32,000 bases of DNA from Candidatus Omnitrophota bacterium (GCA_963662715.1 OY759724.1:3000001-3032000), one strand, 5' to 3'; shown: positions 514 through 28,955, numbered from the stretch's first letter. Notes: generated by a model not told the origin, from the sequence alone. A program made the numbers and translations.

Positions 514-680
514 GGAATACAGAGATAGAAAAGATCAAAAAGGCATACAAAAAATGCAGGAGAGGTTCGGGGCGGCACGACAGAAGATTTCTTTATTGAC
601 GGTCTCCATAAGGATGACGTTGTGTTAAAGGATTTGTCTGGCGAGAGAATTATAGGTTGAGAACGGAGGGGAAGGACGCG

Positions 681-4051: not shown

Positions 4052-4082
4052 TTATGCATATTTCAAATGAGGCAAAAAAATA

Positions 4083-6781: not shown

Positions 6782-6817
6782 TATTTGGAAATGATATTGA
6801 AAACAGGAGGAAAAGAG

Positions 6818-7258: not shown

Positions 7259-7348
7259 GGAAAAACAAACGGGGTATATCTCCTACGCATGGCGGGCGCA
7301 GCATATGTTCGACTAACTCATAAAACGTATTTTTTACAGGAGGTTATT

Positions 7349-9265: not shown

Positions 9266-10340
9266 TCTTGATAATCTTTTGGATGAACTGGTGGCGTTGA
9301 ACGGCAGCGACCTGCACCTTGCCGTCGGCAATCCTCCCGTGTTCCGGGTGCATGGTTATCTTCAGAGGCTCAACGGACATGACGAACCATTAGGCCCGGA
9401 AATCATCGCTTCGATGGTCGCCGGGGTTGTCAGCGAAGACGCATTCGACCGTTTGCGTCACACCGGGGAACTTGACGCCGCTTTTGAAAGGCCCGACGGC
9501 ACCCGCCTGCGTATCAATGCTTACCGGCAGCAGGGTGAATTCGCTGTTGCTATTCGGCTTCTGCCCAATCGTTTTTTTAAACTGGAGGAGTTGGGGATTA
9601 ATGTCAATTTTCTGAAGAAGATCTGCGGACTGCCTTCGGGGCTGGTTCTTGTGACAGGAACAACCAGCAGCGGGAAATCCACGACCATTGCCAGCATTGT
9701 CAATGAAATCAATAAGACCCGGGCTTGTCATATCCACACTATTGAGGACCCGATCGAGTATCGGCACCGCAGTCTGAAATCTTTTGTGACTCAACGTGAA
9801 ATCGGGCGTGATACAGCCAATTTCTCCGAAGCCCTGCGCCGCAGTATGCGGCAGGACCCGGATGTGATCGTTGTCGGTGAAATGCGAGACTTGGAGACCA
9901 TGTCGGCAGCGTTTGCTTTAGCCGAGACCGGACATCTCACCTTTGCCACCCTGCACACCGCTGATGCCATTCAGACCATATCCCGTGTGATAAGCGCGTA
10001 TCCTGCTGATCATCAGGCGCAGATCCGTGTGCAAATGGCTTCAACCTTGCAGGTGGTCATCTGCCAAAAACTGATCCCGTGGCAAAACAAAACGGGGCGT
10101 TCGCTCGCCGCCGAGATTCTGTTCTCCACGCCCAGTGTGCGCGCGATGATCCGTGAGGAAAAGACTCATCAGATGAGGACAGCCATTCAAACCGGCGCTG
10201 AACACGGCATGCAGACTCTTAATCAATCGCTTCTCGCACTGCTCGCCGAGGGCCGGATCGACGAAGCGGCCGCGATGCATTACAGCGAGGATAAAGCCAA
10301 TATGAAAAATGAAATGGAGCATTTGAAGCATGAAAATTAA
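9255..10340 (+). CDS. pilT: PilT-type pilus retraction ATPase
   Basis: The start MPRDLDNLLDELVALNGSDLHL overlaps the secretin stop by 11 nt. Walker A GTTSSGKST, Asp box IHTIEDPIEY, Walker B DPDVIVVGEMRD, His box TGHLTFATLHT. At 361 aa it is a typical PilT size. The 9135 start in the ORF track adds a non-homologous extension. Confidence 0.9.
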   Translation: MPRDLDNLLDELVALNGSDLHLAVGNPPVFRVHGYLQRLNGHDEPLGPEIIASMVAGVVSEDAFDRLRHTGELDAAFERPDGTRLRINAYRQQGEFAVAIRLLPNRFFKLEELGINVNFLKKICGLPSGLVLVTGTTSSGKSTTIASIVNEINKTRACHIHTIEDPIEYRHRSLKSFVTQREIGRDTANFSEALRRSMRQDPDVIVVGEMRDLETMSAAFALAETGHLTFATLHTADAIQTISRVISAYPADHQAQIRVQMASTLQVVICQKLIPWQNKTGRSLAAEILFSTPSVRAMIREEKTHQMRTAIQTGAEHGMQTLNQSLLALLAEGRIDEAAAMHYSEDKANMKNEMEHLKHEN

Positions 10341-10866
10341 TTTTAAAACATGGTTAAAAATTATCCTTTCGATCATTGTATTTTTTATTTCGTTTTATTC
10401 TGTGAGAAGTTTGCTAAATGATAATTTGAAACATGAAGATTTTCAGTTTCAGAATCCGGCGATCGGGATAGCTGTCCCTTCCGTAAAACTGGCAGAGCCT
10501 GATGCGCAAGAGGTGGATTTAAGAGAACTGATCAAAGGGCAAAAAGCGATTATTTTTTTCTGGTCGTCAGCATGTCCGCATTGTGTAAAGGCTATTGAAC
10601 GCCAGGATAAGCAGGAAAAAGAATTGGCAGCTAAAGGGATTAGGTTCCTTTCCATTAATCAAGGAGAGGAGATCGGCAGAATTCAACAATTTTGGGAAAG
10701 GAAAAAACTGGAAGGGGACTTTTGGGTTGATATAAATAACACGTTACCTTCCATCTTGAAAATTGTGGGAGTTCCGTCTTATTACTTTGTGAATGAAAAA
10801 GGGGTCATTGTGATGGTAGAACACAAATTAACTAAAGGAATGATAAAATATTTCATGAAACTTTAA
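10330..10866 (+). CDS. Membrane-anchored TlpA/ResA-like thiol:disulfide oxidoreductase (thioredoxin fold)
   Basis: N-terminal anchor LKIILSIIVFFISFY and the redox motif WSSACPHC. It has the usual TlpA-family length and layout. The ATG overlaps the last 11 nt of pilT. Confidence 0.75.
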   Translation: MKINFKTWLKIILSIIVFFISFYSVRSLLNDNLKHEDFQFQNPAIGIAVPSVKLAEPDAQEVDLRELIKGQKAIIFFWSSACPHCVKAIERQDKQEKELAAKGIRFLSINQGEEIGRIQQFWERKKLEGDFWVDINNTLPSILKIVGVPSYYFVNEKGVIVMVEHKLTKGMIKYFMKL

Positions 10867-10903
10867 AATCACCTTCATTGATGATGACAAACGAGATACG
10901 AAA

Positions 10904-10917
10904 GGGGACAGGCCCCC
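10904..10917. repeat. GGGGACAG(G/T)CCCC palindromic motif, copy 1 (variant)
   Basis: GAAAGGGGACAGGCCCCC lies 38 nt after the stop at 10866 and is followed by ATAATAAAC. Confidence 0.5.
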
Positions 10918-11011
10918 ATAATAAACTATGTTATCAGTTTGTACCCTTTTCAATTTCCGTCAACCATCCCACCTTGATTTTCATATTATAAGAGAGTATA
11001 ATCGCAACATC

Positions 11012-11123
11012 ATAAAGAATGTTTTTCTCTGCCCCTACGGATGACCGATGGTACCGAAAAAGGACGGTAATGGAAAATATCGCTAAGGCATTGGAGAAAC
11101 AGGGAGTTGTTACTCTAAAATAA
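11012..11123 (+). repeat. Mini-ORF module copy A (degenerate first ORF, intact second ORF)
   Basis: (I)KNVFLCPYG-TGA at 11012-11044 has no ATG. The conserved core GATGACCGATGGTACCGAAAAAGGACGG follows. The second ORF is MENIAKALEKQGVVTLK (11070-11123). Confidence 0.7.
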
Positions 11124-11230
11124 CGAAAAGATGATCTCATAAATGCCTGGGGGAAAATTACTGCTCAGAATTTGAGACTGCTTGGAATGAAATGCCCAAA
11201 GCAACTTATCAATAAGGATGGCATAAATCA

Positions 11231-12643
11231 ATGGGATCAGAAGACGTGAAATTGTTAGAGAAAGGAAAGGAACTCATGTACATATCTCCTAGGAGTAATA
11301 GACCGGCTGAAAACAGTTCAGGTTTAATGAATAGCTTAGTGATGGGGAACTCATCAAAAGTTGTAGGCTGTTTTCTTACCTTTGTTATGTTGGGGCTTCT
11401 GTGTCTTCCACCACAGCAGATTGCTGAGGCCCGTCAAGTTATGAAAGAAGGAAAATTTACCATTGATATCAACGATGACTTCCAATGTGGCGAAGAAGCC
11501 GAGTTAACGATCACGGTTCCGGACCGCAGATTTTTTAAGGGTGACCCGCGACACATCCGGGTCTTAATCGGGAACGTACGGGGGCCTCTGAGTGAAGAAT
11601 GTGGTCAATATGCCTTTAGAAGTGTCAAAATCATCGGCAAAGAAGGCGACGTCCAGGTTTTTTCAGGGTCTGCCCAAAAAAGTGAAAGTTGGAAGATTGT
11701 CAGTGACAATGCTGATGATCAAGGGGAGCAACATGATGGGCAAGAGCCTGATGTCAGAATCAAATTCCGCCTTCCAAACAGTTCCGCCGGTATTGACTAT
11801 GCAGGAACCTGTCAAAGAAACCCTATTATCCCGTTAAAACCGGTGTATTACAATAATGCGGATGCGGCTTTGAGCAAACCGGCCACAATGAGAGATTATC
11901 GTGTTGTCGCGCCGTTGATTGCTGAACAGTATCTATCAGCGTGCCCCGGCACGGAAACCATTGACTTCTCACTCAACCCCATTCCCGAAGGATATGTCTG
12001 TGTCAGCGGGTTCCTCTGTTATTTGAATTGGTCTGCACAGAATCCAAAGGAAGTCATGACCGCAGAATTTAAAAGAAAACCAAGGCTTAAGGACTACGAT
12101 GATGTTATTCAAGCTTTTGCAGAAGGGAATTTTGATATCCTTCGTGAGTATAAAGAATTCAATCATCTTTTTCATAATGATTTTGCCGAGAGATATACAG
12201 ACATTTGTAGAGACCATGTTGACAGTACGGTCACTTTTGAAATTGAGAGCATTCAAACCCGATACAATTCAGATGGCTTCGTTGAAAGTAAAAACAAGGT
12301 AGGGCCGACGGTCCACATCCATATTGACGAGAATTTTGCAAAGCGATACAAGGCGTTTTACGGTCCTAATAAAGCCTGGGGTGCGCTTTTATTAATGAAC
12401 CGGGTTGTTGATCAGAGGTCTCGCCGTCCCGGATCTGCGGGTATGATCAAAGGTGTGAGCTATTTTATCGATAATTTAAACCAAATTGATCAATTTCTAT
12501 CGAAGGGTTGCACAACGGAAAAAGTGCGCACGGTTTACGATAATATCGACCGTTTTTATCGCCATCAACCACCTGTGAAGGCCGAAAAGGAAGGGGAAAA
12601 AAGGAAGGGGACAGTCCCCGCTAAGGGACAGGGCAACCTTTAG
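11231..12643 (+). CDS. Hypothetical secreted protein (no family recognised)
   Basis: Long ORF. The hydrophobic signal-like segment VVGCFLTFVMLGLLCLPPQQIAEA suggests the real start may be an internal ATG (11276, 11327 or 11342). I recognise no catalytic motif. Confidence 0.55.
   Translation: MGSEDVKLLEKGKELMYISPRSNRPAENSSGLMNSLVMGNSSKVVGCFLTFVMLGLLCLPPQQIAEARQVMKEGKFTIDINDDFQCGEEAELTITVPDRRFFKGDPRHIRVLIGNVRGPLSEECGQYAFRSVKIIGKEGDVQVFSGSAQKSESWKIVSDNADDQGEQHDGQEPDVRIKFRLPNSSAGIDYAGTCQRNPIIPLKPVYYNNADAALSKPATMRDYRVVAPLIAEQYLSACPGTETIDFSLNPIPEGYVCVSGFLCYLNWSAQNPKEVMTAEFKRKPRLKDYDDVIQAFAEGNFDILREYKEFNHLFHNDFAERYTDICRDHVDSTVTFEIESIQTRYNSDGFVESKNKVGPTVHIHIDENFAKRYKAFYGPNKAWGALLLMNRVVDQRSRRPGSAGMIKGVSYFIDNLNQIDQFLSKGCTTEKVRTVYDNIDRFYRHQPPVKAEKEGEKRKGTVPAKGQGNL
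12607..12619. repeat. GGGGACAGTCCCC palindromic motif, copy 2
   Basis: Perfect GGGGAC-A-GTCCCC inside the last 37 nt of the 11231-12643 ORF. A half-copy GGGACAGGGC lies 5 nt downstream. Confidence 0.6.
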
Positions 12644-12666
12644 GCAATGACATCTGGGAGGGATTC

Positions 12667-14028
12667 ATGACGAACACAAAAGGATTCTTCAATAGTTTGG
12701 CCGGCAAACTGGCCGCAAAATTCAAGAAATCGCGCTGTGCCTTTTGCTCAAAGATACTGCCGGAGGAAGGGCTATCGAATCGACTTTTTAAAGAAAATTT
12801 GGTGCGGAAGATGAAGGACAGTTTGGGGGAACCTCAGCGGCCCCCACATGCTATCCAAGAGGGTGCTCCTCAATGGCTGGTGTGTACTTCCTGTTTTGAT
12901 AAGTTTGTCAACACCCAACAGATTTGCGGTGCTTGCCGGCGGCCTGTGCCACCAACGGAAGGGTACGTATTGCCGGCTAAAAAGGTTGTCACCAAAAATT
13001 ATTTCTGGAGGATGTATTTCTCAAATCCCCTTCCGTATGTCCCCGCGACCACCTATCAAGGGGGAGCCATCACAAATTTTGACGCCATTTACCGTTACGT
13101 GGTGGGGCAGCAGGCTAGTTGGCTTATATGCGAAACGTGCTATAAGACATTGGGAAGCCCGTTTGACTCGGCCAGAGCTGATGCCAAAAAGTGGTGGGGG
13201 GCCGGGCGGAAAAGCGATCATGTCAAGGAAGCCGGCCCGGTCCCGGTCGAGGATGCTGTCGAGCCGGCCACAAAGGGATTTTATCTTGTCTACAGGAAGC
13301 CTTCCGTTGGTCTTTGGATAAATGCCTCGTCCAAGCCTAATGAAGCCTTACCCCAAGAGGAGTTTAATGAAATTTGTCCTCTGATCGAAGATCTTGCCAC
13401 TAAAAGCCTCGGCACCGTTCTCGGAAGCGACCCATATTTTTCATTAAGACGTCTGGGTAAACGCGTCGTACCTTACTTGACAAAGGTCATCGATTATCCC
13501 AATTATGAAATAGCAGAAAAAGCTGTTAAACTTTTAGGGGAAGTCGGGGGGAAAGAGGCTATTCCTGTACTTCAAAAAGTTGTGGAAGACTGTAATATTT
13601 GGGAAGTCCGCAAAGCCGCTTTGACCGGCCTTGCACAAATTAAAAAAATAGACGACGAAACTCTCCCCTTGGACACCGAGTGCCCTTATCAACAAATTTC
13701 CGAAGTCTGGACCGCAGTCATTCAGGGCCGAAAGCAGCTCTATACCCCGAACACTATTTATGAATACGGCACGAGAACTATGGAACGTATGCCAAAGCTG
13801 ATGATTGAATCTGAGAAGATGCGGTCACGGATGTGGGCTATGCTGGCCGAACTTATATATATCGGTTTAAACGCTTCTTGGGATAGGGATATTCGGACCA
13901 TAAAACATTGCCCTCAAGCTGGAAAATGTATGGAAGAAGCATTGCGCTGCGACCCCCAAGGGGAAAATGTGGAAATGTGGAATCAATTTCTTAAAGCATA
14001 TACAATCACATGTGGGGACAGTCCTTAA
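12667..14028 (+). CDS. Hypothetical cytoplasmic protein with duplicated Cys4 zinc-ribbon-like units and HEAT-like repeats
   Basis: CAFC...WLVCTSCFDKF and CGAC...WLICETCYKTL form two CxxC...CxxC units with a shared WL(V/I)C.(S/T)C(F/Y).K motif. The central stretch VVPYLTKVIDYPNYEIAEKAVKLLGEVGGKEAIPVLQKVVEDCNIWEVRKAALTGLAQI resembles HEAT/PBS-lyase repeats. Confidence 0.6.
   Translation: MTNTKGFFNSLAGKLAAKFKKSRCAFCSKILPEEGLSNRLFKENLVRKMKDSLGEPQRPPHAIQEGAPQWLVCTSCFDKFVNTQQICGACRRPVPPTEGYVLPAKKVVTKNYFWRMYFSNPLPYVPATTYQGGAITNFDAIYRYVVGQQASWLICETCYKTLGSPFDSARADAKKWWGAGRKSDHVKEAGPVPVEDAVEPATKGFYLVYRKPSVGLWINASSKPNEALPQEEFNEICPLIEDLATKSLGTVLGSDPYFSLRRLGKRVVPYLTKVIDYPNYEIAEKAVKLLGEVGGKEAIPVLQKVVEDCNIWEVRKAALTGLAQIKKIDDETLPLDTECPYQQISEVWTAVIQGRKQLYTPNTIYEYGTRTMERMPKLMIESEKMRSRMWAMLAELIYIGLNASWDRDIRTIKHCPQAGKCMEEALRCDPQGENVEMWNQFLKAYTITCGDSP
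14014..14024. repeat. GGGGACAGTCC motif, copy 3 (truncated right arm)
   Basis: It lies in the last five codons (CGDSP-stop) of the 12667-14028 ORF. ...GAATAATAAAC follows, as for copy 1. Confidence 0.45.
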
Positions 14029-14063
14029 GAATACCTAAGAATAATAAACTTAAAGGAGAATTC

Positions 14064-14729
14064 ATGAAATTCTCATTTGTATTTATTGTAATCATGTTAT
14101 TGAGCTCCAACGTTTATGCCCAAAGTAACCTCGCCTCATCCAAGAAGCCGAATATTATGGAGGTTATTTTGTTTTTGAATGCCAATCAAGCCAATAATGG
14201 CTCTGCCAGTTTTAAAGCAGATCATGATAAAAAAACTTTGGAATATTTCGATCAAGATGGGAGGTTGATAGAGAAATCTTATATCAATGAAAGCAACGAT
14301 ATTGTCACCCAGAAATATGACAAAGAAGGGGGAATTATATCGGAAACAAAAATCACAGAGGAATCCATTTTAGCACAAAATAAGAAGAGGAAAGATGACC
14401 ATAAAAATAAAGTGGTCCCCGGATTGATCGCCAAATTGTCCGTCATGGCTAAAGCCGCAGAGCGTTACGCAAAAGATCATGATGGCCGATTTCCCCAACA
14501 AATGAATGAGCTTGTTGGCGCTCAGCCGCCATACTTAAGTGAATGCTTTTGCGATGACCAAACCCCAACATATCGAATAGTTTGTGACATTAATGAAGCT
14601 GGTTATCACTTTAAGGCCAACGCACTCTGGTCACATCTTGAATCCTATGTAATGGTAAACGGCGAAAAGTTAACGACAGTACCGCCCCAGAGACCAACAT
14701 ACGAGAAGTCTACATCAACGTGCAAATAA
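14064..14729 (+). CDS. Hypothetical secreted protein; the C-terminal half weakly resembles the GspG/pseudopilin globular domain
   Basis: ATG at 14064 lies 5 nt after AAAGGAG. Signal peptide MKFSFVFIVIMLLSSNVYAQS. The segment LIAKLSVMAKAAERYAKDHDGRFPQQMNELVG resembles the pseudopilin pattern a...l..Y..DnG.yP....eLv, but there is no N-terminal prepilin methylation motif. The resemblance is recognition only. Confidence 0.5.
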   Translation: MKFSFVFIVIMLLSSNVYAQSNLASSKKPNIMEVILFLNANQANNGSASFKADHDKKTLEYFDQDGRLIEKSYINESNDIVTQKYDKEGGIISETKITEESILAQNKKRKDDHKNKVVPGLIAKLSVMAKAAERYAKDHDGRFPQQMNELVGAQPPYLSECFCDDQTPTYRIVCDINEAGYHFKANALWSHLESYVMVNGEKLTTVPPQRPTYEKSTSTCK

Positions 14730-14743
14730 ATTTTGAAGGGGAA

Positions 14744-14756
14744 GAGGACAGTCCCC
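14744..14756. repeat. GAGGACAGTCCCC palindromic motif, copy 4
   Basis: GAAGGGGAAGAGGACAGTCCCCAATAA begins 15 nt after the stop at 14729. Confidence 0.55.
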
Positions 14757-14829
14757 AATAAGTTGCGAACCAAGGGAAAAAGATTAAAGAAATTGGTCAT
14801 TAATACTACAAATACAGGACTGCTATTTT

Positions 14830-15783
14830 ATGAGAGCCAAATCACAGGAACTCCTCGATTCATTAGCCGATGAAACTTCCGTTTTTATACAGACCCATGA
14901 CTTTCCGGATCCTGATGCTGTTGCGGCCGCATTCGGACTCCAATATTTTTTGAAAGAAAAAGGAACGGCATCCACCATTCTCTATGAAGGTGAACTCCAA
15001 ACAAATCCGATCGGAAGAATGGTCAAAGATCTTGGTATTGTCATGCAAAAAACGGGTGAGATAAATCTAAAGAAAAAAGACGGCATTATACTTATTGATG
15101 GGTGTAAGGGCAATGAAAATGTAACCAATGATACAGGAAAAGTTCTGGCGGTCATCGATCATCATTTAGGCAAGGAGCCAGCAGACGTTCCGTTTCTCGA
15201 CATCAGGAGTGATTACGGTGCGTCATCAACAATTATTTCTCATTATTTGAAGGAAAGTGGGGTTGTTCTGACACCCTATGTAGCCACAGCTTTATCAATC
15301 GGCATTCATGTCGATACCGGTTCTTTGCGCAGGAGGGTTCATCTCAAAGACATCGAAATGCTTTCCTTTTTGCAAGATAAGAGTGACAACAACTTATTGG
15401 GATCAATATTACGTAATAATGTTTGCCAAGAAGATCTTCATATTTATAAAAAGGCTTTAAAAAATGTCAAAATCAGTGATCGTTTCGCATTTTATTACCA
15501 TCCTGGAGAATGCGCGCAAAATCTTTTGGGCATACTTGCTGATTTCTTTTTGTCTGTAAAAGAAATCAATTTCGTAGTGCTTTGCGCGCAAAGTAACGGC
15601 AAAATCATTTTCTCGGTGCGCAGTGAAAACCCCGAGTGGAATGCGGCGTTTATCATCAAAAGTGTTCTCCGAGGATTGGGTGCCGGAGGAGGACATCAAG
15701 ACATGGCTGGGGGAGCCATCAAAGATCCCTCTTCATTTAATGAGAAAGAGCTTTATGAAAAATTTCTGAACCATATAGATTAA
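14830..15783 (+). CDS. DHH/DHHA1-family phosphoesterase (NrnA-like nanoRNase / pAp or cyclic-dinucleotide phosphodiesterase class)
   Basis: Family motifs appear in order: HDFPDPDAV (DxD), LIDG, VIDHH (DHH), HVDTGS, and the C-terminal GGGHQDMAGG (DHHA1 GGGH). Confidence 0.8.
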   Translation: MRAKSQELLDSLADETSVFIQTHDFPDPDAVAAAFGLQYFLKEKGTASTILYEGELQTNPIGRMVKDLGIVMQKTGEINLKKKDGIILIDGCKGNENVTNDTGKVLAVIDHHLGKEPADVPFLDIRSDYGASSTIISHYLKESGVVLTPYVATALSIGIHVDTGSLRRRVHLKDIEMLSFLQDKSDNNLLGSILRNNVCQEDLHIYKKALKNVKISDRFAFYYHPGECAQNLLGILADFFLSVKEINFVVLCAQSNGKIIFSVRSENPEWNAAFIIKSVLRGLGAGGGHQDMAGGAIKDPSSFNEKELYEKFLNHID

Positions 15784-15794
15784 GCTCAATACTT

Positions 15795-15900
15795 ATGAAA
15801 AAAAATTATTTAAAAATTTACGGCTGACCGATGGTACCGAAAAAGGACGGCAATGAAAAATATCGCCAAAGCATTGGAAAAGCAAGGGATATGTAATTAA
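15795..15900 (+). repeat. Mini-ORF module copy B
   Basis: MKKNYLKIYG-TGA (15795-15827) starts 11 nt after the DHH stop. The conserved core CTGACCGATGGTACCGAAAAAGGACGG follows. The second ORF is MKNIAKALEKQGICN (15853-15900). Confidence 0.8.
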
Positions 15901-15936
15901 AAAAAACTTATAAACTCACATTAACTAGGAATTGAT

Positions 15937-16365
15937 ATGCGACAAAAATTCAACCTCATTACCCTCGGCGTAAAAGACATACAAAAATCCATAAATTTTT
16001 ATGAGAAAGGTCTCGGCTGGAAAAGGTCGCCTGCGAGTCTAGATGATCTTATTCTTTTTCCCTTAGGAGGAATTGTTTTGGCGCTCTATCCGCGGAAGCT
16101 TTTGGCTGATGATATAACCTTAAAAGACTTGCCAACAGGGTTTTCTGCTGTAACTATTTCTTATAATGCAAAGGATGAAAATGAGGTGAATGAGGTTCTC
16201 GGGCAGGTAGAGCAACTTGGAGCAACCATTCTCAAACCCGCTCAGAAAGCATTTTGGGGTGGATACAGCGGATATTTTAAGGATTTGGACGGGCATTTAA
16301 TTGAAGTTGCATATAATCCATTTTGGGAGTTTGATAATAACGACAATCTTAATTTGCCATTATGA
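15937..16365 (+). CDS. VOC-family (glyoxalase / bleomycin-resistance fold) protein
   Basis: 142 aa. The N-terminal LITLGVKDIQKSINFYEKGLGW and C-terminal GYFKDLDGHLIEVAYNP are typical paired beta-alpha-beta-beta-beta VOC signatures. Confidence 0.75.
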   Translation: MRQKFNLITLGVKDIQKSINFYEKGLGWKRSPASLDDLILFPLGGIVLALYPRKLLADDITLKDLPTGFSAVTISYNAKDENEVNEVLGQVEQLGATILKPAQKAFWGGYSGYFKDLDGHLIEVAYNPFWEFDNNDNLNLPL

Positions 16366-16408
16366 AAATTTGTGACGGGATTGCTGCTATAATATAAAGA
16401 AATAAGCT

Positions 16409-17035
16409 ATGGATAAGAAACATCAAGTGGAGAATATTGATATTCTAAAAAAATTTGGAGACTACTACACTGCAAGTGAACGTACATTTATTATGGGCAT
16501 TGATAAAAAATTTACGTCTCATTTTGCTGAACGATTCAAGAATTTTGTCGTTTTAGAAACATGCACTGGGGGAGGATTTACTACCATATCTCTTGCGAGA
16601 ACAGCAAAGCATGTCATTACATTTGAAATTGATCGATCCATACAAGAAGATGCCGCCCAAAATATAAAGAAAGCAGACCTATCCGACAGGGTTACTTTGA
16701 TAAATGGAAATATTCTGAATCAAAATTTAATAGAAAATCTCCCGCCTATAAATAGCGCATTTCTTGATCCTGATTGGGCTGTAACTGGACCAGATCACAT
16801 CTATCGATTCACAAATTCGAATACAAATCCTCCAGCAGATGTATTGCTCAATAAAATTTTTATAATTACTAATAATGTTGCCTTAGTTTTACCCCCGTTT
16901 ATTGATATCAAAGAACTAGAAGGATTACCAGAGCACGAGCTTGAACAACTCTACATGGGGGACTCCTTAGAACTTTATTGTCTTTATTTTGGAAAACTCA
17001 TAAAAACCATTGGTAAAACAACCTTTAGAATATAA
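16409..17035 (+). CDS. Class I SAM-dependent methyltransferase (resembles the cap guanine-N2 / Methyltransf_15 type)
   Basis: Motif I VLETCTGGGFTTISLA, acidic motif II ITFEID, and AFLDPDW, which resembles the (S/D)PPW substrate motif. The subfamily call is tentative. Confidence 0.65.
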   Translation: MDKKHQVENIDILKKFGDYYTASERTFIMGIDKKFTSHFAERFKNFVVLETCTGGGFTTISLARTAKHVITFEIDRSIQEDAAQNIKKADLSDRVTLINGNILNQNLIENLPPINSAFLDPDWAVTGPDHIYRFTNSNTNPPADVLLNKIFIITNNVALVLPPFIDIKELEGLPEHELEQLYMGDSLELYCLYFGKLIKTIGKTTFRI

Positions 17036-17048
17036 TTTAGCGTAAAAC

Positions 17049-17196
17049 ATGAAGAAAATATTTCTAAAAATCTACGGCTGACCGATGGTACCGAAAAAGG
17101 ACGGTCATGGAAAATATTGCCAAGTCATTGGAAAAGCAAGGGATAGAAGCTAAATTGTTGAAATTTAGTGACTCAAAATACTCCTATGAAAATTAG
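17049..17196 (+). repeat. Mini-ORF module copy C (best preserved)
   Basis: MKKIFLKIYG-TGA (17049-17081) starts 13 nt after the preceding stop, followed by the conserved core. The second ORF is MENIAKSLEKQGIEAKLLKFSDSKYSYEN (17107-17196). It overlaps the ATG of the next gene (17186) by 11 nt. Confidence 0.8.
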
Positions 17197-18238
17197 AAAA
17201 ATTAAAGATGAAGACATAAATGCAGTGGTAGAACTATGGTACGAAGTTTCACTTGAAGCACATAGTTTCGTTCCCTCGGAATATTGGAAAAAGAATAAAG
17301 AAGCAATGGCTACGAAATATCTGCCGAATTCAGAAACCTATTTAGCCCTTCAAAAGGATACGATTGTTGGGTTTATTACCATGGTCGATAATTATCTTGC
17401 AGCCATTTTTGTCTCTTCGGATATGCAGGGTCGCGGAATCGGCACAGAATTATTAAATCATATAAAAGATCACAGAAATTTGATTCAATTAAAAGTTTAT
17501 AAAAAGAACTCAAAAAGCGTAAATTTTTACATCAAACAAGGATTTCAATTATTTGCTGAAGAGACGGAAGAAGTAACAGGAGAAATAGAGTGTTTAATGA
17601 AGTGGAAGAAATTGAACATGAAAGATGAAACAAAATTATTCTACGATTTAACTGCAGAAAAAACGGCAGATGAATGGTATCAGAATGATATTCTCCTGCC
17701 AACAATAAAAGAATTCGCGTCCTTACTGCCAGAAGCACCTCGAGTATTGGATTTAGGCTGCGGCCCGGGGCATGAAAGCAAAAGGTTGGCATCCCTCGGA
17801 GCCGACGTAATCGGTATAGATTACAGTAGTGAATGCATTCGTATTGCCAAAGAACGTTGTCATGAATGTGAATTCAAACTCATGGATTTTCGCCATCTTG
17901 ATGGTAGTCTTGGCCGATTCGACGGTGTATTTGCCAGCGGGTCGTTAATTCATATCACTCCGGCTGATCTGTCAGATGTTCTTAAAAACATCGCAGCCAT
18001 ATTAAAACAAGACGGTTTTCTTATAATGATTCTTCAGGATGGAGAGGGCATCCATGAAAAATACAGCAATCTTGAAGTCAGTGGCAAAATCTTAAGACGA
18101 CCGGTTTATTGCTATGCAAAAGATCATTTGATTAAGATTTCTTCGAGATCTAATCTCGAGTTTATAAAAGAAGGGCTTTTGGATAAAAACCTCTATGCGG
18201 ATAATTGGAGAAACCATATATTCAAGCGGATAAAATAA
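17186..18238 (+). CDS. GNAT acetyltransferase fused to a class I SAM methyltransferase
   Basis: The N-terminal half has the GNAT motif A region IFVSSDMQGRGIGTELL. The C-terminal half has methyltransferase motif I VLDLGCGPGHESKRLA and GIDYS. I chose ATG 17186 (MKIRKIKDEDINAV...) over the GTG at 17168 in the ORF track. Confidence 0.75.
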   Translation: MKIRKIKDEDINAVVELWYEVSLEAHSFVPSEYWKKNKEAMATKYLPNSETYLALQKDTIVGFITMVDNYLAAIFVSSDMQGRGIGTELLNHIKDHRNLIQLKVYKKNSKSVNFYIKQGFQLFAEETEEVTGEIECLMKWKKLNMKDETKLFYDLTAEKTADEWYQNDILLPTIKEFASLLPEAPRVLDLGCGPGHESKRLASLGADVIGIDYSSECIRIAKERCHECEFKLMDFRHLDGSLGRFDGVFASGSLIHITPADLSDVLKNIAAILKQDGFLIMILQDGEGIHEKYSNLEVSGKILRRPVYCYAKDHLIKISSRSNLEFIKEGLLDKNLYADNWRNHIFKRIK

Positions 18239-18268
18239 TTATAAAGTAATTTAAAAAAAGGAAGAAAG

Positions 18269-18559
18269 ATGCCTGTTTATTTGGTTGTTGAAACTAAAGA
18301 GATTCTGAATAAAGCTACGTATAGCGAGTATATTCAGAAAGTGCCGCCAACTGTCCAAGCATTCGGCGGTGAGTATTTGGCCCGCGGAGGACAAGTCAAG
18401 GTCATCTCAGGGGATTGGAGCCCCGAACGCCTTATTGTTGTTAAATTTGGCTCTATGGATACCTTAAACTCCTGGCTCAATTCTCCAGAATATTCTGCAA
18501 TTGCCTCTTTGCGTGAACAATCCGCTAAGACAAACGCTATCGTGGTGGAAGGCGTCTAG
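18269..18559 (+). CDS. DUF1330-family protein
   Basis: 96 aa with the family pattern Y..Y......V..FGGEYLARGG.......W.PERLIVVKF.S.....W..SPEY......R. An SD (AGGAAG) lies upstream. Confidence 0.75.
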   Translation: MPVYLVVETKEILNKATYSEYIQKVPPTVQAFGGEYLARGGQVKVISGDWSPERLIVVKFGSMDTLNSWLNSPEYSAIASLREQSAKTNAIVVEGV

Positions 18560-18563
18560 AAAT

Positions 18564-18711
18564 ATGACAAAAAAGGTTTATCTTAAAGTATACGTCTGAC
18601 CGATGGTGCCTAAAAAGGACGGCAATGGAAAATATTGCTAAGGTGCTGAAAAAACAGGGAATAAAGATAAAATCGCTGAATTTCAACGACTCCAAAAATA
18701 AGGGGAAATAA
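18564..18711 (+). repeat. Mini-ORF module copy D
   Basis: MTKKVYLKVYV-TGA (18564-18599) starts 4 nt after the DUF1330 stop. The core is CTGACCGATGGTGCCTAAAAAGGACGG. The second ORF is MENIAKVLKKQGIKIKSLNFNDSKNKGK (18625-18711). Its TAA overlaps the ATG of the next gene (TAATG). Confidence 0.8.
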
Positions 18712-19475
18712 TGAAGAAACAATGGTATGAATCATTATTCGAAGATTACGCTCACAAATACGATAAGGAATGTTTTGTTCAAGGCACGATCGGCGAATGC
18801 GATTTTATTGAAGATGAGATAAACCACGTAAAATCCTTAAAGATTATCGATATCGGTTGTGGGACAGGAAGGCATTCTATTGAACTTACTAAAAGGGGAT
18901 ACAACGTGACCGGGGTTGACCTTTCTGATAATCAAATTAAAAGGGCAAGGGAAAAGGCGCAAGAGGCAGGGGTGGCCATCGACTTCCAAACAAAAGATGC
19001 CCGTAATCTTCCGTTTGAAGGTGAATTTGATCTGGCTATTATGTTGTGTGAAGGCGGATTCTCTCTTATGGAAACAGATGAGATGAACTTTGAAATCCTC
19101 AAGAATGCAACAAAAGCGTTGAAAGATAAAGGCAAATTCATTTTTACCACATTAAATGGGTTATTCCCGCTGTTTCATTCTGTCAAGGAATTTTATGAGT
19201 CGGCGCAGAAAGAGGGGCAATCCCAATGTAAGGATTGTTCCTTTGATCTGATGACATTCCGCGATCACAATACCGTTGTCTTTGAAGATGATGCGGGAAA
19301 TAAAAAAGAATTAAAATGCCATGAACGCTATTATGTGCCCAGTGAGATAACGTGGCTTTTAAAGACGCTGGGGTTTAAGAAAATCGGCATCTTTGGCGCA
19401 AAGCTCGGGGCATACTCAAGAAACGACAAATTGACAATCGACGATTTTGAAATGCTTGTTGTCGCGGAAAAATGA
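18711..19475 (+). CDS. Class I SAM-dependent methyltransferase
   Basis: Motif I IIDIGCGTGRHSIELT, then VTGVDLS and the post-I acidic residue. 254 aa. Confidence 0.8.
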   Translation: MKKQWYESLFEDYAHKYDKECFVQGTIGECDFIEDEINHVKSLKIIDIGCGTGRHSIELTKRGYNVTGVDLSDNQIKRAREKAQEAGVAIDFQTKDARNLPFEGEFDLAIMLCEGGFSLMETDEMNFEILKNATKALKDKGKFIFTTLNGLFPLFHSVKEFYESAQKEGQSQCKDCSFDLMTFRDHNTVVFEDDAGNKKELKCHERYYVPSEITWLLKTLGFKKIGIFGAKLGAYSRNDKLTIDDFEMLVVAEK

Positions 19476-19574
19476 TAGAAGATACGAAAAAAATATACCT
19501 TCGAACATTTGGTTGACCGTACGTATCACTACGGTGAAATATTTTTGAGGCTGATATGCGCTTTAAGTGATTGA
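19472..19574 (+). repeat. Mini-ORF module copy F (divergent downstream half)
   Basis: MIEDTKKIYLRTFG-TGA (19472-19516). Its ATG overlaps the methyltransferase stop (ATGA). The +1 frame after the stop reads DRTYHYGEIFLRLICALSD (19515-19574). Confidence 0.65.
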
Positions 19575-19705
19575 TTATCAGTTAGTTATACTGATAAAAT
19601 AAATGAAATAATATAAAAAGTTATATATTACAAAATTGTAATTTTTCGGTCATGTTAATTTAATTTTTGCCTATTATCATGTATGAATAAACCAATTTAT
19701 AAATT

Positions 19706-20383
19706 ATGAAAATATTATTAGTTGAAGACGATAAGCAAACAGCTCAATTTATACTTAATGGATTAACCCAACAGGGTTATGCCGTTCAGCATGCCGAAAA
19801 TGGTTTGGATGGATTACATTTCGCCGAAGTTGAAAAGTATGATGTGGCTATAGTCGACATAATGATGCCAGAGCTTGACGGTTTAAGCATGATTGAAAAA
19901 CTCCGAAATAAGAAAATTATGCTGCCAGTCATAATATTGAGCGCAAAAAGCGACGTTTCCGATAGGGTCAAAGGACTTCAAAAAGGCGGCGATGATTATT
20001 TAGTAAAACCTTTTTCCTTCAGTGAATTATTGGCCAGAATCCAAGCTATCCTTCGCAGATCTTTTTCCAGGCCAGGCATTACTTCATTTCAAATTGGAGA
20101 TTTGAAATTGGATTCAATCAAACGAAAAGTCTATCGGCAAGATAAAGAAATCTTCCTTCCCGTTGGCGAATTCATATTACTTGAATATCTTATGCAAAAT
20201 GCGGGAAGAGTAGTATCAAAGACTATGATTATTGAAAATGTTTGGGATTATAATTTTGATCCAGAAACTAATGTCATCGAAGCACGCATGAGCCGTTTAA
20301 GAAACAAAATTGATAAACCATTTAAGAAAAAACTCCTTCATACCGTCAGAGGATTTGGATATGTTCTGGAAGAAAAAGAATAG
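19706..20383 (+). CDS. OmpR-family response regulator
   Basis: The receiver domain has MKILLVEDD and VAIVDIMMPELDG. The C-terminal winged-helix domain has RMSRLRNKID....LLHTVRGFGYVLE. Confidence 0.9.
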   Translation: MKILLVEDDKQTAQFILNGLTQQGYAVQHAENGLDGLHFAEVEKYDVAIVDIMMPELDGLSMIEKLRNKKIMLPVIILSAKSDVSDRVKGLQKGGDDYLVKPFSFSELLARIQAILRRSFSRPGITSFQIGDLKLDSIKRKVYRQDKEIFLPVGEFILLEYLMQNAGRVVSKTMIIENVWDYNFDPETNVIEARMSRLRNKIDKPFKKKLLHTVRGFGYVLEEKE

Positions 20384-21873: not shown

Positions 21874-22665
21874 TTAAGCAAGGATTTTTTTGTGTAGATC
21901 GAGTTCTTTGTTAATCCATCTTTTGTAAAACTCTTCAGGCGTAGCGAAGAATAATGCCTGATGAGGGAAATCGGTGTTGTAATCGTTGATCCAACGCTTG
22001 AAGTCATCTTGAAGATCAAATGGGTTGTCCCATTCATTGATCCAAATGAAATCTTCTTTGATTCTGCGGATGACGCGTTCGGTGTCAGCATTGCCTTTGG
22101 GGTTGGACCAGGTTGAGAAGATCTGCTTGATGCCGGCCAGTGAACAATTAAGCCTGAAGCGCCCGCTGGTGGGCTGACAGCCATTGTCCGAGATCAGGTG
22201 CAGGTCATGATTCAGTGTGTCTTTGATGCCGTTTGGGAATCGGTTGTTGATGGCCATTTCCAGGGCATCCAGCCAGTCATCAGTCTTTGACTGGATGTTG
22301 AGGCTATAGCCGATAATTTCTTTGGTATACCAGTCTAGGACGATGGTCAGATAGAACCAGCCCCAGGTCGCCAGTTTGATTTTTGTCATATCGATACCCC
22401 AGAATTGATTGGGGTGAGAAGCTCGTGGTTTCCGGCGGAGGTTGCCACGCTTGGCCTTCAAGCGATCGTTGGGTTGAACCGTTAATTGATTTTCTTGCAT
22501 GAGGCGTTGGACACAATTTTTGCCAATTTTGTAATGTTTACGGTTGTTTAAATAGGCCCAGACTGAACGGTATCCCCAGAGGGGATGTTGCTTTTTAATT
22601 TGTCGGATTTTGACTAAATGTTTTTGGTCTTGTTCGATACGCTTTAGAGAACGGCGTCTTTTCAT
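21874..22665 (-). CDS. IS3-family transposase OrfB (DDE / rve integrase core)
   Basis: WGIDMTKIKL (first D), LISDNGCQPTS (second D) and NPKGNADTERVIRRIKEDF (E) in the typical order. It lies in the -1 frame relative to orfA. Confidence 0.85.
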   Translation of the reverse strand: MKRRRSLKRIEQDQKHLVKIRQIKKQHPLWGYRSVWAYLNNRKHYKIGKNCVQRLMQENQLTVQPNDRLKAKRGNLRRKPRASHPNQFWGIDMTKIKLATWGWFYLTIVLDWYTKEIIGYSLNIQSKTDDWLDALEMAINNRFPNGIKDTLNHDLHLISDNGCQPTSGRFRLNCSLAGIKQIFSTWSNPKGNADTERVIRRIKEDFIWINEWDNPFDLQDDFKRWINDYNTDFPHQALFFATPEEFYKRWINKELDLHKKILA

Positions 22666-22967
22666 AACTCGTACTCGTTTTTTTTTAGTTCAACGGTCAA
22701 GTCGCCGATGATGCGTTTGAGTTTGGCGTTTTCTTTTTCAAGACGTTGCTCTTTCTGGGACTGTTGTTTGATGTCAAAGGCCATATGGCATTCTTTGAGG
22801 AACTGGTCGCGCCATTTGTAATATTGGGTTTGGCCAATTTGGTATTTGTTACAAAGTTTACTGATGTCGATTTTCCCGCTGAGGCCTTCAAGCACGATTT
22901 GGGTCTTTTGTTGGCTGGTCCATTGGCGTTTTTTCATGGGAATTGGGCTCCTTTCCTTGGAACTCAA
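22662..22967 (-). CDS. IS3-family transposase OrfA (HTH plus leucine-zipper-like coil)
   Basis: RQWTSQQKTQIVLEGLSGKIDISKLCNKYQIGQTQYYKWRDQF is an IS3/IS911-type HTH. A C-terminal coiled coil ends at the slippery A run. ATG 22937 is an alternative start. Confidence 0.8.
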   Translation of the reverse strand: MSSKERSPIPMKKRQWTSQQKTQIVLEGLSGKIDISKLCNKYQIGQTQYYKWRDQFLKECHMAFDIKQQSQKEQRLEKENAKLKRIIGDLTVELKKNEYEL

Positions 22968-23835: not shown

Positions 23836-26800
23836 ATGATGAAAACATTCTTTGAATTCTTTGCAAGAAGAACCCTCCTTGCTAATTTAATATCGATTAT
23901 GATTGTTCTTCTGGGGATAGGTTCTCTGCTCACGATTAAACGTGACAGCTATCCTCATGTTGATTTCGGAGAAGTTTTAATCGAAACATCCTACCCTGGA
24001 GCTTCACCCGAGGATGTTGAAATCAACATTACGAATAAGATCGAAAACGAGTTAAAAAGCGTTACGGGGATAAAAAATTTCACTTCCGTATCAATAGAAG
24101 GCGTCTCGCTCATTACTGTTATCATTGATCCGACAGTCCGGGACATGAAAAAAGTGAAAAATGATGTCCGGGATGCCGTCAACCGTATCAAAGATTGGCC
24201 CCGAGAGATTGAAAATTTTCCTTTTATTGAAGAGTCAAATTCTGCAACGTTTCCAATTATGGAAGTCGCCCTTTCAGGAGAGATGCCTTACAGGGATCTT
24301 TATCAAACAGCTAAACTACTAAAGAAAAAGCTGGAAAATCTTCCGGAAGTTTGCCGAATCAATGAATATGGATATCGAGCGAGAGAAATTCATATCGAAC
24401 TTGCCCCGGAAAAAATCAAAGATTATCAAATCCCAATAAATTGTATTAAGACAGCCATCCAAAAAAGAAACATCCGCTCCACGGCGGGAAATTCAGAATC
24501 ATTAACTGATAATAAAAATATCACCATTTCATCTCAATTCAGCAGCCCTTCTGAAGTTGGCGATGTAATCATTCGGAACTCATATGATGGCCCTCTTATC
24601 AGATTGCATGACCTTGCTGTTATTGAAGATGATTTTGAAAAAGCACAGACCCTCTCGCGTGTTAACGGGATATCTTCCATTTCCTTTGAAATAATAAAAG
24701 CTGAGTCTGCCGATATTTTAAGAGCCGTAGAATCTGTCAAAAAAGTCATCAAAGAATCAAAGGAGATTACGTCCGCAGGACTAAAGATATCTATTGCCAA
24801 TGATTCCTCTCATTATGTCAGAAATCGTCTTAATATTGTACAAAGAAACGCCGTCTTGGGCCTTATCTTTGTCATTTTACTACTGCGGATCTTTATGAAT
24901 GCAGAAACATCTTTTTGGATTGCCGCAGGAATTCCTATATCTTTGTTAGGGACGATTTATTTGATGCCTTTTTTTAATGTTTTCTTGGATAGTCTCTCCT
25001 TGAGCGCCATGATTATGGTAATCGGTATCATCGTCGATGATGCTATTATTATCAGTGAAAATATTTATAAACATAGGGAGCAGGGCAGTCCTCCGCTCAA
25101 GGCCACAATAAGCGGCATTCAGGAAATTTTTTGGCCTGTCCTCACAACCGTCCTGACAACCTTTTTCGCCTTTGTTCCCATGTTTTTTATGGAAGGTCTT
25201 TTTGGGAAATTTGTCACGGTTATTCCCTTGGTGATAACGTTGGCGTTATTCATATCCCTGATTGAATCATTTATAGCGCTTCCAGCGCATCTTCAACATG
25301 GATTGCGAAAACATAGGGGAGCACGACATTCAAAAAACAAATTACAATATTTAAAAGCAGTATATTTCTCGCGGATGAAACAAATATTGAAATTCCGGTA
25401 TATGGTTGTTTTTATTTTTATTATTGTCTTTGGAGTAACCCTACATTTCGGATTGACCCGCCTCAAGACGATACTTTTTCCGGATAAAATGGCAGAGGAG
25501 ATTTCAATCACGGCACAACTTCCCCAAGGATCCAGCCTGCAACACACATCTCAGAAATTCTCGGAGATTGAGCAAATTATAGCCCGCTTACCTAAAACCG
25601 AACTGAGTTCTTTTGTTACGCGAATCGGTGAAGACGAGTTTTCTGATATCAAAATTAAAAATCATGGATACATGATATTGTTTCTAACGCCTTTTAGCGA
25701 ACGGAAACGCAGCGCTCAGGAAATTGTTGAAGAGCTTCGAAAATCCACACGCCAATTGAAAGGCTTTGAAAATATTTCTTATTTCATAGAAACCGGCGGC
25801 CCTCCCGATGGAAAACCCGTTGAAATCTGCATCGTGGGAAGCAATGATACGATACGAAAAAAACTCGCCGATGATGTTGTTTCCTTTTTAAATACACTTA
25901 AAGGAGTCAAAGATATTACCCGTGACGATAAAATCGAACAAGGCCTGATTGAACTGGACATAGATTACCTTCAACTGGAAAGGTTCGGTTTAACTGTTGA
26001 AAATATTGCATCAAACGCCCGCATCGCCTATGAAGGAGAAGTTGTCACCAAAGTCAGATATGGGGATGAGGACGTTAATTTCAGGCTTTTGTTCAATAAA
26101 AACTCCGATGACAATCCTGATCGACTCGAAAACCTCCTGCTGGCAAATAACCAAAATAAACTTATTGAGTTAAACAAGGTCGCCAAATTTAAACACACAA
26201 AAGGTCAAAGCCTCTATCAGCATCATAACGGTCAAAGGGCAGTCAAAATCGAAGCAGACGTTTTTCAAGACATCATGACTCCTGATGACGTGATGGATTT
26301 AGTAGAGAATAAATTCAATCTTGACAGAGACTATCCCGGGACAAAATTTATAAAAGAAGGCGAGATCTTTGAAACAGAGCAATCTTTCAAAAGCCTGTTC
26401 CTGACCATGATCATCGCATTGACCGGGATTTATTTCCTTTTAATTGTCTTGTTCAATTCTTTAACACAGCCTCTTATTGTCATGGCAGCCATCCCTTTTG
26501 GTATTTTCGGTGTCATTCTTGCTTTTTTACTTCACAAAGAACCTTTAAGCTTTATCGCGTTGCTTGGCGCCATCGGGTTAACGGGTGTTGTTGTCAATGA
26601 TTCCCTCGTTCTTGTCAGCCATTTAAATCAAATCAAAAAAAGTTCACCTGCAGGACTTTCCATCATCGACATTGTTGCCCAAGGATCTTCCGACCGGTTA
26701 AGGGCAATCATTATGACAACAGTTACTACCGTAGGAGGACTTATTCCGCTTGCGTACGGATGGGGAGGATCCGACCCCTTTATGGCTCCCATGGCATTGT

Positions 26801-28803: not shown

Positions 28804-28846
28804 ATGAATATGATGTTTAGGTGAAATTTGGAGTTTGCAACATATT

Positions 28847-28955
28847 ATGAATAAACAAGATACAATAACAATTTTCTTGAGAACCTACGGCTGACCGTAT
28901 GGCCAAGTTCCGCACGATGATTTTGAAGGTTTTGAGTATGATGTATGAGGAATAA
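28847..28955 (+). repeat. Mini-ORF module copy E (divergent downstream half)
   Basis: MNKQDTITIFLRTYG-TGA (28847-28894) starts 43 nt after the preceding stop. TACGGCTGACCG is conserved. The +1 frame reads DRMAKFRTMILKVLSMMYEE (28893-28955). Confidence 0.65.

Follow-up and report, generated by a model that had tools for sequence, protein, structure and literature searches.

What is the repeated sequence that divides a run of small genes into units in a 32,000-nucleotide (nt) stretch of DNA from a Candidatus Omnitrophota bacterium (GCA_963662715.1 OY759724.1:3000001-3032000), and how did it come to stand before each unit? The whole of this stretch is called the window below. Five genes lie on one strand between 15937 and 19475 with very short spacers, and a preliminary description likened them to the cargo of an integron that has neither attC sites nor an integrase. 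Two explanations were offered there, an undescribed way of accreting accessory genes and a regulon built by duplicating a leader. We find that the repeated module is neither an attC site nor a structured RNA but a junction element, whose sequence descends from the 5' end of miaB, a tRNA-modification gene. The five genes were matched by Pfam to the identities first given to them, i.e. a VOC/glyoxalase, two methyltransferases, a fusion of a GNAT domain with a methyltransferase, and a DUF1330 protein, the sole change being that the fusion likely starts at 17186.

A repeat search found a 127-nt direct repeat in three copies, ahead of the first, third and fifth of these genes (nhmmer E 1e-35 to 1e-40). 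This bears out the division of the genes into units, which extends to six copies of the module in the window as a whole. A fourth copy of the same type lies at 11013-11123, before a gene for an unknown protein of 470 amino acids (aa), with E 1e-22. There are thus four type-1 copies, beginning at 11013, 15795, 17049 and 18564, and two diverged type-2 copies, beginning at 19472 and 28815, which have the layout of type 1 and a different sequence. The number of matches to the core pattern expected by chance is 0. We refer to the six copies in order as junctions c0 to c5; all are on the plus strand.

The module comprises a left part, the pre-core, followed by a short core and a post-core, and is laid out as two short upstream open reading frames (uORF1 and uORF2). 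In junction c1 (15795-15924) uORF1 occupies 15795-15827 and encodes MKKNYLKIYG before a TGA stop, a Shine-Dalgarno (SD) site lies at 15843, and uORF2 at 15853-15900 encodes MKNIAKALEKQGICN. Junction c2 (17049-17196) has uORF1 at 17049-17081 (MKKIFLKIYG), the SD at 17097 and a uORF2 of 29 aa at 17107-17196, and c3 (18564-18711) has uORF1 at 18564-18599 (MTKKVYLKVYV), the SD at 18615 and a uORF2 of 28 aa at 18625-18711. In these three junctions uORF1 starts 4-13 nt past the stop codon of the preceding gene (4 nt past that of the DUF1330 gene in the case of c3) and ends at TGA. The pre-core of c0 (11013-11123) is miaB-like but degenerate and has no in-frame start; its TGA is at 11042-11044, the SD AAGGA at 11060, and uORF2 at 11070-11123 encodes MENIAKALEKQGVVTLK. 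Of the type-2 copies, c4 (19472-19570) has uORF1 at 19472-19516 (MIEDTKKIYLRTFG, ending in TGA) with the core GGTTGACCGTACG, a terminator-like hairpin at 19516-19535, the SD GAGG, and then a tiny uORF2 at 19556-19570 (MRFK). Its uORF1 overlaps the stop codon of the methyltransferase gene (ATGA). c5 (28815-28955) has uORF1 at 28847-28894 (MNKQDTITIFLRTYG, again ending in TGA), the SD GAAGG, and uORF2 at 28938-28955. It is about 69% identical to positions 3455-3585 of another contig, L106, including the stretch upstream of the ATG.

uORF1 is followed by about 30 nearly invariant bases (TGACCGATGGTACCGAAAAAGGACGG) that include the AAGGA SD site, and the first 13 codons of uORF2, MENIAKALEKQGI, are conserved among the type-1 copies. 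Just three positions of a 27-nt core pattern differ across the four type-1 copies. The junctions are closely placed with respect to the genes on either side. Junctions c1 to c4 lie 13 nt or less from the previous stop codon, and over the window the starts of the pre-cores range from a 4-nt overlap to 43 nt past the stop of the preceding gene; the intact miaB of contig L006 is placed likewise. At the other end, uORF2 abuts or overlaps the start of the next gene in two of the four type-1 copies, and also in contigs L006 and L009. The uORF2 of c2 extends 11 nt into the next gene, counted from its ATG at 17186, and this gene lacks its own SD; in c3 the TAA of uORF2 overlaps the next ATG as TAATG. 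In c0 and c1 the uORF2 stop is 36-110 nt upstream of the next gene.

The module corresponds to the first ~35 codons of miaB. Its pre-core reproduces the opening 10-15 codons of a gene for a MiaB-type methylthiotransferase, as far as the conserved Y/F-G-C-Q-M motif, and ends at the core GG(C/T)TG(A/C/G)CC(G/A)GATG. The post-core is a remodelled continuation of miaB, in which the addition of 7 nt has given the arrangement of stop, SD and ATG. uORF1 resembles the N-terminus of MiaB, with a TGA stop in place of the cysteine codon of GCQMN, and uORF2, of the form ME(N/K)IAxAL, is homologous to the MiaB residues SE(V/I)(V/I)AGLL (MENIAKVLKKQG aligned with SEVVAGLLQQEG). Both versions are present in contig L006, where uORF1 is MKKNKFFLVTYGCQMVTL, the signature start of MiaB/RimO methylthiotransferases, and the intact miaB begins MKKKVYLKVWGCQMNVRDSEVVAGLL; named homologues identify the product of the latter as a Candidatus Omnitrophota MiaB. 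A hidden Markov model built from only four intact miaB 5' ends gave c2, c0, c1 and c3 as its top four matches in the 32-kb window, all ending at the ATG of GCQ-M. All pre-core variants of the junctions fall inside the natural N-terminal range of 120 MiaB homologues, the named ones of which are mostly from Omnitrophota. The conceptual peptide of uORF1 plus uORF2 has a weak match to positions 1-30 of Pfam UPF0004 (E 0.015-0.023). An origin from glutaredoxin, ArsC or Thioredoxin_3 was considered and rejected: Thioredoxin_3 was matched only after a second cysteine had been edited in, and matches to DsbE were weak and far under cutoff. The UPF0004/MiaB origin is preferred because of the collinearity of the DNA.

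The codon of the GCQM cysteine reads TGA in each of the six window copies, as it does in junction L106a; it is TGC in L006 and L106b, and TGG in L009, L106c and L107. We note that TGACCG is found at this point in every window junction (TGA at 11042, 15825, 17079, 18597, 19514 and 28892) as against TGCCAG (Cys-Gln) in miaB. This uniformity within one genome, despite diverged flanks, could reflect an overlap region used in recombination, or selection that favors an early stop in uORF1.

The properties expected of an integron or of a structured RNA are not seen. Neither strand of 10800-19800 has RYYYAAC and GTTRRRY paired at a distance of 40-160 nt, in agreement with the preliminary description, and attC sites were rejected on this ground. 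Its statement that the repeat is not an imperfect palindrome also holds. The repeats have no conserved secondary structure on either strand: the consensus fold is -8 kcal/mol or weaker with no covariation, RNAalifold applied to nine junctions gave -0.96 kcal/mol with three pairs and no compensatory change, and there is no conserved hairpin after the TGA of uORF1. No Rfam family matched the module at the gathering threshold or at E<=10, and a riboswitch or other structured RNA was rejected for this reason and for want of a conserved fold. A 7-bp hairpin from the first ATGG to the start of uORF2 can be drawn in L106a, L006 and L009; it is lost in the window copies, as judged by reading the alignment. 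A Pfam scan of the main open reading frames (ORFs) of the window, in which overlapping or shadow ORFs of at least 90 aa were not scanned, found no IntI/Phage_integrase domain, and so no tyrosine recombinase gene, as had been claimed; only the rve and HTH_Tnp_1 ORFs of an IS3-family transposase pair were found. Direct GGAAAA repeats were also seen and could have been an operator for the neighboring OmpR-type regulator, but a coding function is preferred because the substitutions are periodic in 3 nt and the sequence is conserved across genomes. The module has no similarity to the neighboring redoxin gene (10330-10866). Literature searches on methylthiotransferase with DUF1330, and on Omnitrophota with integron, returned nothing relevant.

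The same junction also bounds units in unrelated contigs that have different neighbors, both with the same cargo and with other cargo (toxin-antitoxin, TPR and PIN genes). The methyltransferase domain of the GNAT fusion starts at 17618, and has standalone homologues of 205 aa (MTase205) with about 70% identity. Directly upstream of MTase205 in contigs L006, L009 and L106 is a homologue of the module with the two-ORF layout. L006-L008 contain the junction, MTase205, DUF1330, an intact miaB, YfiO/SPOR and miaA in that order, and L009 has the junction, MTase205, a second methyltransferase (MTase253), a transpeptidase and an intact methylthiotransferase. In these two contig families the array terminates at an intact miaB-type gene. 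The methyltransferase of 18711-19475 in the window has 77% nt identity with the MTase253 that adjoins MTase205 in L009. Standalone pairs of MTase205 and DUF1330 lie behind the junction in both L006-L008 and L106. In L106 at least three junctions are accompanied by a type-2 copy and an orphan pre-core, and the units that they bound comprise an AbiE-like pair, an unknown protein of 377 aa, MTase205 plus DUF1330 plus two more genes, and TPR plus PIN. Because MTase205 is linked elsewhere to both DUF1330 and MTase253, the window genes are recurrent linked sets and not arbitrary. The five genes had been described as unrelated, which in this sense they are not.

The cargo upstream of miaB is different again in L107, whose MiaB is 77% identical to that of L006, and a third relative has yet another set in which MTase253 is last, right before miaB. 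The variable side is thus upstream of miaB, and the downstream order miaB-YfiO/SPOR-miaA is kept in L006, L107 and the third relative. Between blocks L107 has one junction-like ORF at 2994-3113, which runs uninterrupted for 39 aa (MKEVFVCTCGWPMATFGEKPSGRIARAIVENVLRSQGLL). Its linker is 2 nt longer than that of the window (9 nt longer than in miaB), and therefore stays in frame. This form may be an ancestral or alternative version of the junction. L090 has MTase205 followed by MTase253, with a decayed copy of the junction after MTase253. Some MTase205 homologues have no junction: those of L090-L099, in which a lipase gene lies upstream and overlaps the MTase205 gene, and those of L100-L105. In viral contigs and plasmids the relatives of these enzymes are generic methyltransferases only, with no more than ~41% identity.

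Where arrays are compared, homology breaks exactly at the core inside the module. The alignment of the window with L006 is collinear from MTase205 through the DUF1330 stop to the next pre-core, which belongs to c3 in the window and to the start of the intact miaB in L006, and it ends at GATG. The cargo shared across genomes is only ~72% identical, yet the derived architecture of 7-nt insertion, SD and ATG is common to them.

A recombinase is found at this same point in another set of contigs. In L108-L110 a large serine recombinase of 568 aa, an HTH_17 protein and a primase-polymerase lie immediately upstream of miaB. The recombinase gene ends inside the miaB pre-core, while miaB is intact in its own frame. 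The last ~120 nt of the recombinase gene overlap the pre-core in another frame, and therefore the pre-core belongs to the element. A contig in IMG/VR has an 81%-identical recombinase, then the same pre-core (LLRTFGCKM), and then unrelated DNA that is not miaB. This is the arrangement expected of a non-integrated (attP-type) copy of the site, although the contig itself need not be a free or circular element. The integrated and the putative non-integrated form diverge directly past GATG, which is the point where the homology between arrays breaks. Nine of the 120 MiaB gene calls (P0147, P0154, P0156, P0215, P0246, P0247, P0253, P0255 and P0257) begin at the methionine of GCQ-M-N. The one examined, P0154 (in L108), is a mis-call caused by the overlapping serine recombinase gene; the other eight may likewise conceal such an overlap, or a TGA in place of the cysteine codon.

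The junctions have the features of a translational-coupling leader. The GGA of the SD and the ATG are invariant in nine junctions. Among the 39 sites of the first 13 codons of uORF2 there are 15 that vary, and 9/15 of these are at third positions (p=0.03), with synonymous variation of Ile, Ala and Leu codons across genomes. In the 36 nt before uORF2 eight sites vary, six of them in the outer ~9 nt. Stop/start overlaps of TAATG, ATGA or 11 nt occur (with the next gene in c2, c3, L006 and L009), and the cargo genes behind c2, L006 and L009 have no SD of their own. Taken from the sequences, these features suggest that the junctions act in translation, as couplers. A sigma-70-like promoter (TTGATT, 17-nt spacer, TATAAT; 10/12 matches, the best in the region) lies at 10974-11002 on the plus strand just upstream of c0, and is a candidate promoter for the whole co-oriented array.

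The reading that we favor, with a probability of about 0.5, is that promoterless units have accreted at an attachment site in the 5' end of miaB, and that the junctions between them also serve as translation couplers. Units of one to several co-oriented genes would be inserted successively by site-specific recombination at the core. Each incoming unit would carry a replacement miaB start at its far end, so that the displaced old start would be left in front of the inserted unit, and repeated insertion would build an array. The displaced start would be kept because it would allow the unit to be transcribed from the upstream promoter and translated by way of coupling to the short ORFs. In the window the array would run from the promoter at 10974 through c0-c4 (~11.0-19.6 kb), perhaps to c5 at 28.8 kb, and would have lost, or never had, a terminal miaB. 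The GC content is ~52% in the type II secretion/type IV pilus genes (657-10340), and 35-44% over the remainder of the window, which begins with the redoxin gene (10330). A core gene of the host is closest to that of Kiritimatiella or another bacterium of the Planctomycetes-Verrucomicrobia-Chlamydiae (PVC) group, and the named homologues of the cargo include metagenome-assembled genomes of Omnitrophota among other anaerobes. Because of these differences, and of pre-cores that are of the Omnitrophota type, the array was probably acquired horizontally. A wider form of the proposal is possible but doubtful, namely that the PVC group and Omnitrophota possess a cassette system of their own. In this, promoterless units of 1-4 genes would be inserted by a recombinase at miaB codons ~10-14, the DNA encoding the Fe-S ligand motif GCQM, each bringing a fresh miaB start and converting the displaced one into a two-uORF coupler. 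The result would be an integron-like array with one promoter, swappable cassettes and genome-specific junctions, and with no IntI or attC.

Insertion of the small units by site-specific recombination is the step that we infer, and a number of observations weigh against it. The window has no tyrosine or serine recombinase among its scanned ORFs and no intact miaB or remnant of the miaB body by tblastn, and there is no recombinase in the L006, L009, L106 or L107 fragments. The link to a recombinase comes from a single element family. Large serine recombinases normally share just a short core between attP and attB; here the post-core is miaB-like over ~50 nt, beyond what a serine recombinase att site needs. 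Moreover hybrid attL and attR sites are poor substrates for further integration, and the small units may therefore have been inserted by a different kind of recombinase. The junctions group by genome and not by cargo, the post-cores being 76-85% identical within the window vs ~58% across genomes, so local duplication or concerted evolution fits as well as accretion. L006 and L106a share a specific pre-core together with the post-core, which a simple crossover at the core does not predict. Exact-pattern scans of genome, metagenome and viral contigs found no other core of the window type, only chance matches in unrelated coding DNA. The survey of related contigs was small, and the one close relative that the search yielded, from JGI 3300005077 with 82% nt identity, extends no further than window position 9767.

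The grouping of junctions by genome speaks for the rival that was raised at the outset, in which nothing is mobile. A partial duplication of the miaB start would have given a leader with two uORFs, copied before segments of an operon to provide shared translational control or coupling. Much of what was expected of a duplicated leader is indeed present, in the SD, the ATG and the conserved uORF2 peptide with its codon-like substitutions, the stop/start overlaps, and cargo genes without their own SD, and the recurrence of MTase205, MTase253 and DUF1330 beside miaB could be explained by a functional link with MiaB. Yet the cargo as a whole, which includes an AbiE-like pair, PIN, TPR, VOC and DHH proteins and a two-component system with an efflux pump, suggests no plausible shared pathway. 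Nor does a duplicated leader account for pre-cores attached to the stop of the upstream gene, for the break of homology at the core, for the recombinase element occupying the same point, or for the existence of orphan and decayed copies. We consider it rather unlikely, and less well supported than accretion. A further explanation is that the low-GC block was moved or inherited whole and that its junctions are scars that now function neither in recombination nor in expression, decaying pseudogene fragments of the miaB 5' end from old insertions in a donor lineage. The loss of the uORF1 start in c0, the truncation of uORF2 in c0 and c1, the frameshift in the type-2 copy of L106 and the decayed copy of L090 are all consistent with this, as are the lack of a miaB or recombinase in the window and the differences in GC content and affinity between the block and its host. 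But neutral decay would not leave so few changes before uORF2 (8/36) and in the 27-nt core (3), nor a uORF2 in which the changes (15/39) are mostly synonymous, and the same derived architecture is found in genomes whose cargo has diverged to ~72% identity. This explanation is unlikely.

The remaining two are far less probable. The TGA of uORF1 might encode selenocysteine, or ribosomes might avoid it by a +1 frameshift, giving a peptide of 30-50 aa like the MiaB N-terminus before each unit. The alignment of TGA (in the six window junctions and L106a) with the TGC cysteine of L006, L106b and intact miaB is what such recoding would look like, P-M-V and a Leu-stop are retained in the frame past the TGA in L006, L009 and L106, where the Leu codons differ synonymously, and L107 has its single uninterrupted ORF of 39 aa. 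However, L009, L106c and L107 have TGG (Trp) at this codon, the TGA is not followed by a conserved hairpin, the frame after it is not kept between the window and the other contigs, and TGA ends ordinary genes of the window, such as those stopping at 16365 and 19475; we judge recoding very improbable. Least credible of all is that the array is a classical integron whose attC sites are cryptic, or that every unit is preceded by a copy of a riboswitch. The types of cargo are typical of chromosomal integron cassettes, a general point made in the preliminary description, and the repeat does lie in the position of a 5' untranslated region. The absence of R''/R' core pairs, conserved hairpin, intI and Rfam family is described above, and the repeat precedes the genes instead of trailing them.

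The units themselves are all on the plus strand, which holds all the window genes apart from an insertion sequence (IS) element. U0 (11231-15783) has four genes, for an unknown protein of 470 aa that no Pfam or NCBIfam model matched, a HEAT-repeat protein of 453 aa, an unknown protein of 239 aa, and a DHH/DHHA1 protein of 317 aa. The HEAT-repeat protein (12667-14028) has several CxxC pairs, zinc-ribbon-like, in its N-terminal half, and only its HEAT repeats could be assigned to a family. U1 (15937-17035) comprises the VOC/glyoxalase gene (15937-16365) and a class I methyltransferase with weak RsmD/Erm-like similarity (16409-17035). U2 (17186-18559) comprises the fusion of GNAT with Methyltransf_25 (17186-18238, the start likely being the ATG at 17186 and not the GTG at 17168) and the DUF1330 gene (18269-18559), and U3 (18711-19475) has a UbiE/TehB-like methyltransferase (Methyltransf_25) of 254 aa alone; all five genes of U1-U3 were assigned with Pfam and NCBIfam. 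The GNAT part of the fusion follows the junction and precedes MKDETKL, the sequence with which MTase205 usually starts. Such fusions are rare: among the 120 best homologues almost all are standalone methyltransferases of 201-299 aa, and one further full-length fusion is among the homologues listed (P0101, 41% identity). MTase205 and MTase253 have TehB/TPMT-like Pfam matches too, and at 4001-8511 of L090 (also in L091 and L092) they adjoin an ArsR-type HTH gene, two ArsP_1 permeases and a Thioredoxin_3 protein. From this company they may act on arsenic, another metalloid or a thiol compound. Further downstream in the window, the IS3-family element (HTH_Tnp_1 ORF plus rve ORF) lies at 21874-22967 on the minus strand between a histidine kinase gene and a MipA gene; its transposase belongs to a 90% cluster of 26 members and is present in many metagenome contigs. 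A single ORF of 1520 aa at 23836-28398 is an unusual fusion of a complete AcrB-type resistance-nodulation-division pump (residues 5-1013) with an outer-membrane efflux protein (OEP) domain (1357-1520).

If accretion at miaB is correct, it would be a second, independent route to integron-like collections of genes. The most conserved codons of a universal housekeeping gene would serve as the landing pad, and the displaced gene start would become the expression signal of the newcomer. This would explain small accessory gene clusters in little-studied phyla (Omnitrophota and Kiritimatiellota-like bacteria) that are invisible to integron finders, would give a signature by which to search for them (a MiaB N-terminus with a stop at the cysteine codon, then an SD, then ME.IA.AL), and would suggest that there is a recombinase/att pair whose target is present in nearly all bacteria. 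Even if the leader was merely duplicated, the array shows plainly that the 5' end of one gene has been reused as a portable translational leader.

Insertion into the start of a tRNA-modification gene has a precedent. Genomic islands and prophages specific for dusA insert in the 5' end of that gene, replace it and leave a remnant, and in Polaromonas a mobile element has the MiaB-like gene rimO as its target (Farrugia et al. 2015, PMC4482086). As the island supplies a new 5' end, dusA therefore stays intact. The arrays described here are alike in having a conserved 5' stretch of a tRNA-modification gene as the target, semi-conserved direct repeats as boundaries, and a displaced 5' remnant at the other boundary. 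Such remnants are present at the unit boundaries in the window. An intact target gene at the other boundary is seen in L006-L008, L009 and L108-L110 and not in the window, and there is no cognate integrase at the end of the array in the window, L006, L009, L106 or L107. The dusA islands are large single elements with their own DusA-type tyrosine integrase and att repeats of ~21 bp, whereas here integrase-less units of 1-4 genes stand in tandem, and the repeat, of ~100 nt, now takes the form of two short ORFs that are probably coupled to the cargo. Moreover, the recombinase at the miaB site (L108, L111) is a large serine recombinase, and throughout L108-L112 it is of this type and not a DusA-type tyrosine integrase.

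Tandem accretion is a property of the staphylococcal cassette chromosome (SCC). In SCCmec-type islands a large serine recombinase targets the 3' end of rlmH (orfX), an RNA-modification gene that is kept intact; successive elements accrete in tandem, and repeated att sequences flank 'pseudo-SCC' units that have no recombinase. The end of a conserved RNA-modification gene targeted without its destruction, the tandem accretion and the recombinase-less units all have their parallel here, where the six junctions bound five window units in tandem by the same repeat and with no recombinase. SCC differs in that it is the 3' end that is targeted, in repeats of 15-20 bp with no role in expression, and in units of kilobases with their own promoters. 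Integrons form attI/attC cassette arrays served by a Pc promoter, and a short ORF in attI1 enhances the translation of cassettes that lack an SD. The arrays share with them co-oriented small units that are probably mostly promoterless and may lie behind one promoter, a single type of junction repeat that is homogeneous per genome, cargo of accessory, toxin-antitoxin or enzyme genes, and a short ORF at the junction that would aid translation. They differ from integrons in having no IntI, attC hairpin or core sites, in a repeat that is 5' of the unit and derived from a protein gene, and in insertion inside a housekeeping gene. Coupling through leader peptides and uORFs is known from the erm and cat attenuators and from coupled operon genes, and there too an upstream SD-bearing short ORF, a stop/start overlap and a conserved leader peptide are found. 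Here, however, there are no conserved alternative hairpins, the same leader stands before unrelated genes, and that leader is the fossil of the start of another gene. The suggestion of an undescribed way of accreting genes is thus favored in spirit, because of the miaB-derived junctions, their recurrence with varied cargo, the breakpoints at the core, and arrays that abut miaB together with a serine recombinase element at that site. The regulon built from a duplicated leader was right about the leader-like features, and has the lesser support. But the process is not wholly undescribed, as islands that target the 5' end of a gene and tandem SCC-like accretion were both known already. What is new here is the cassette-like scale of the units, and a remnant probably turned into a two-uORF coupler.

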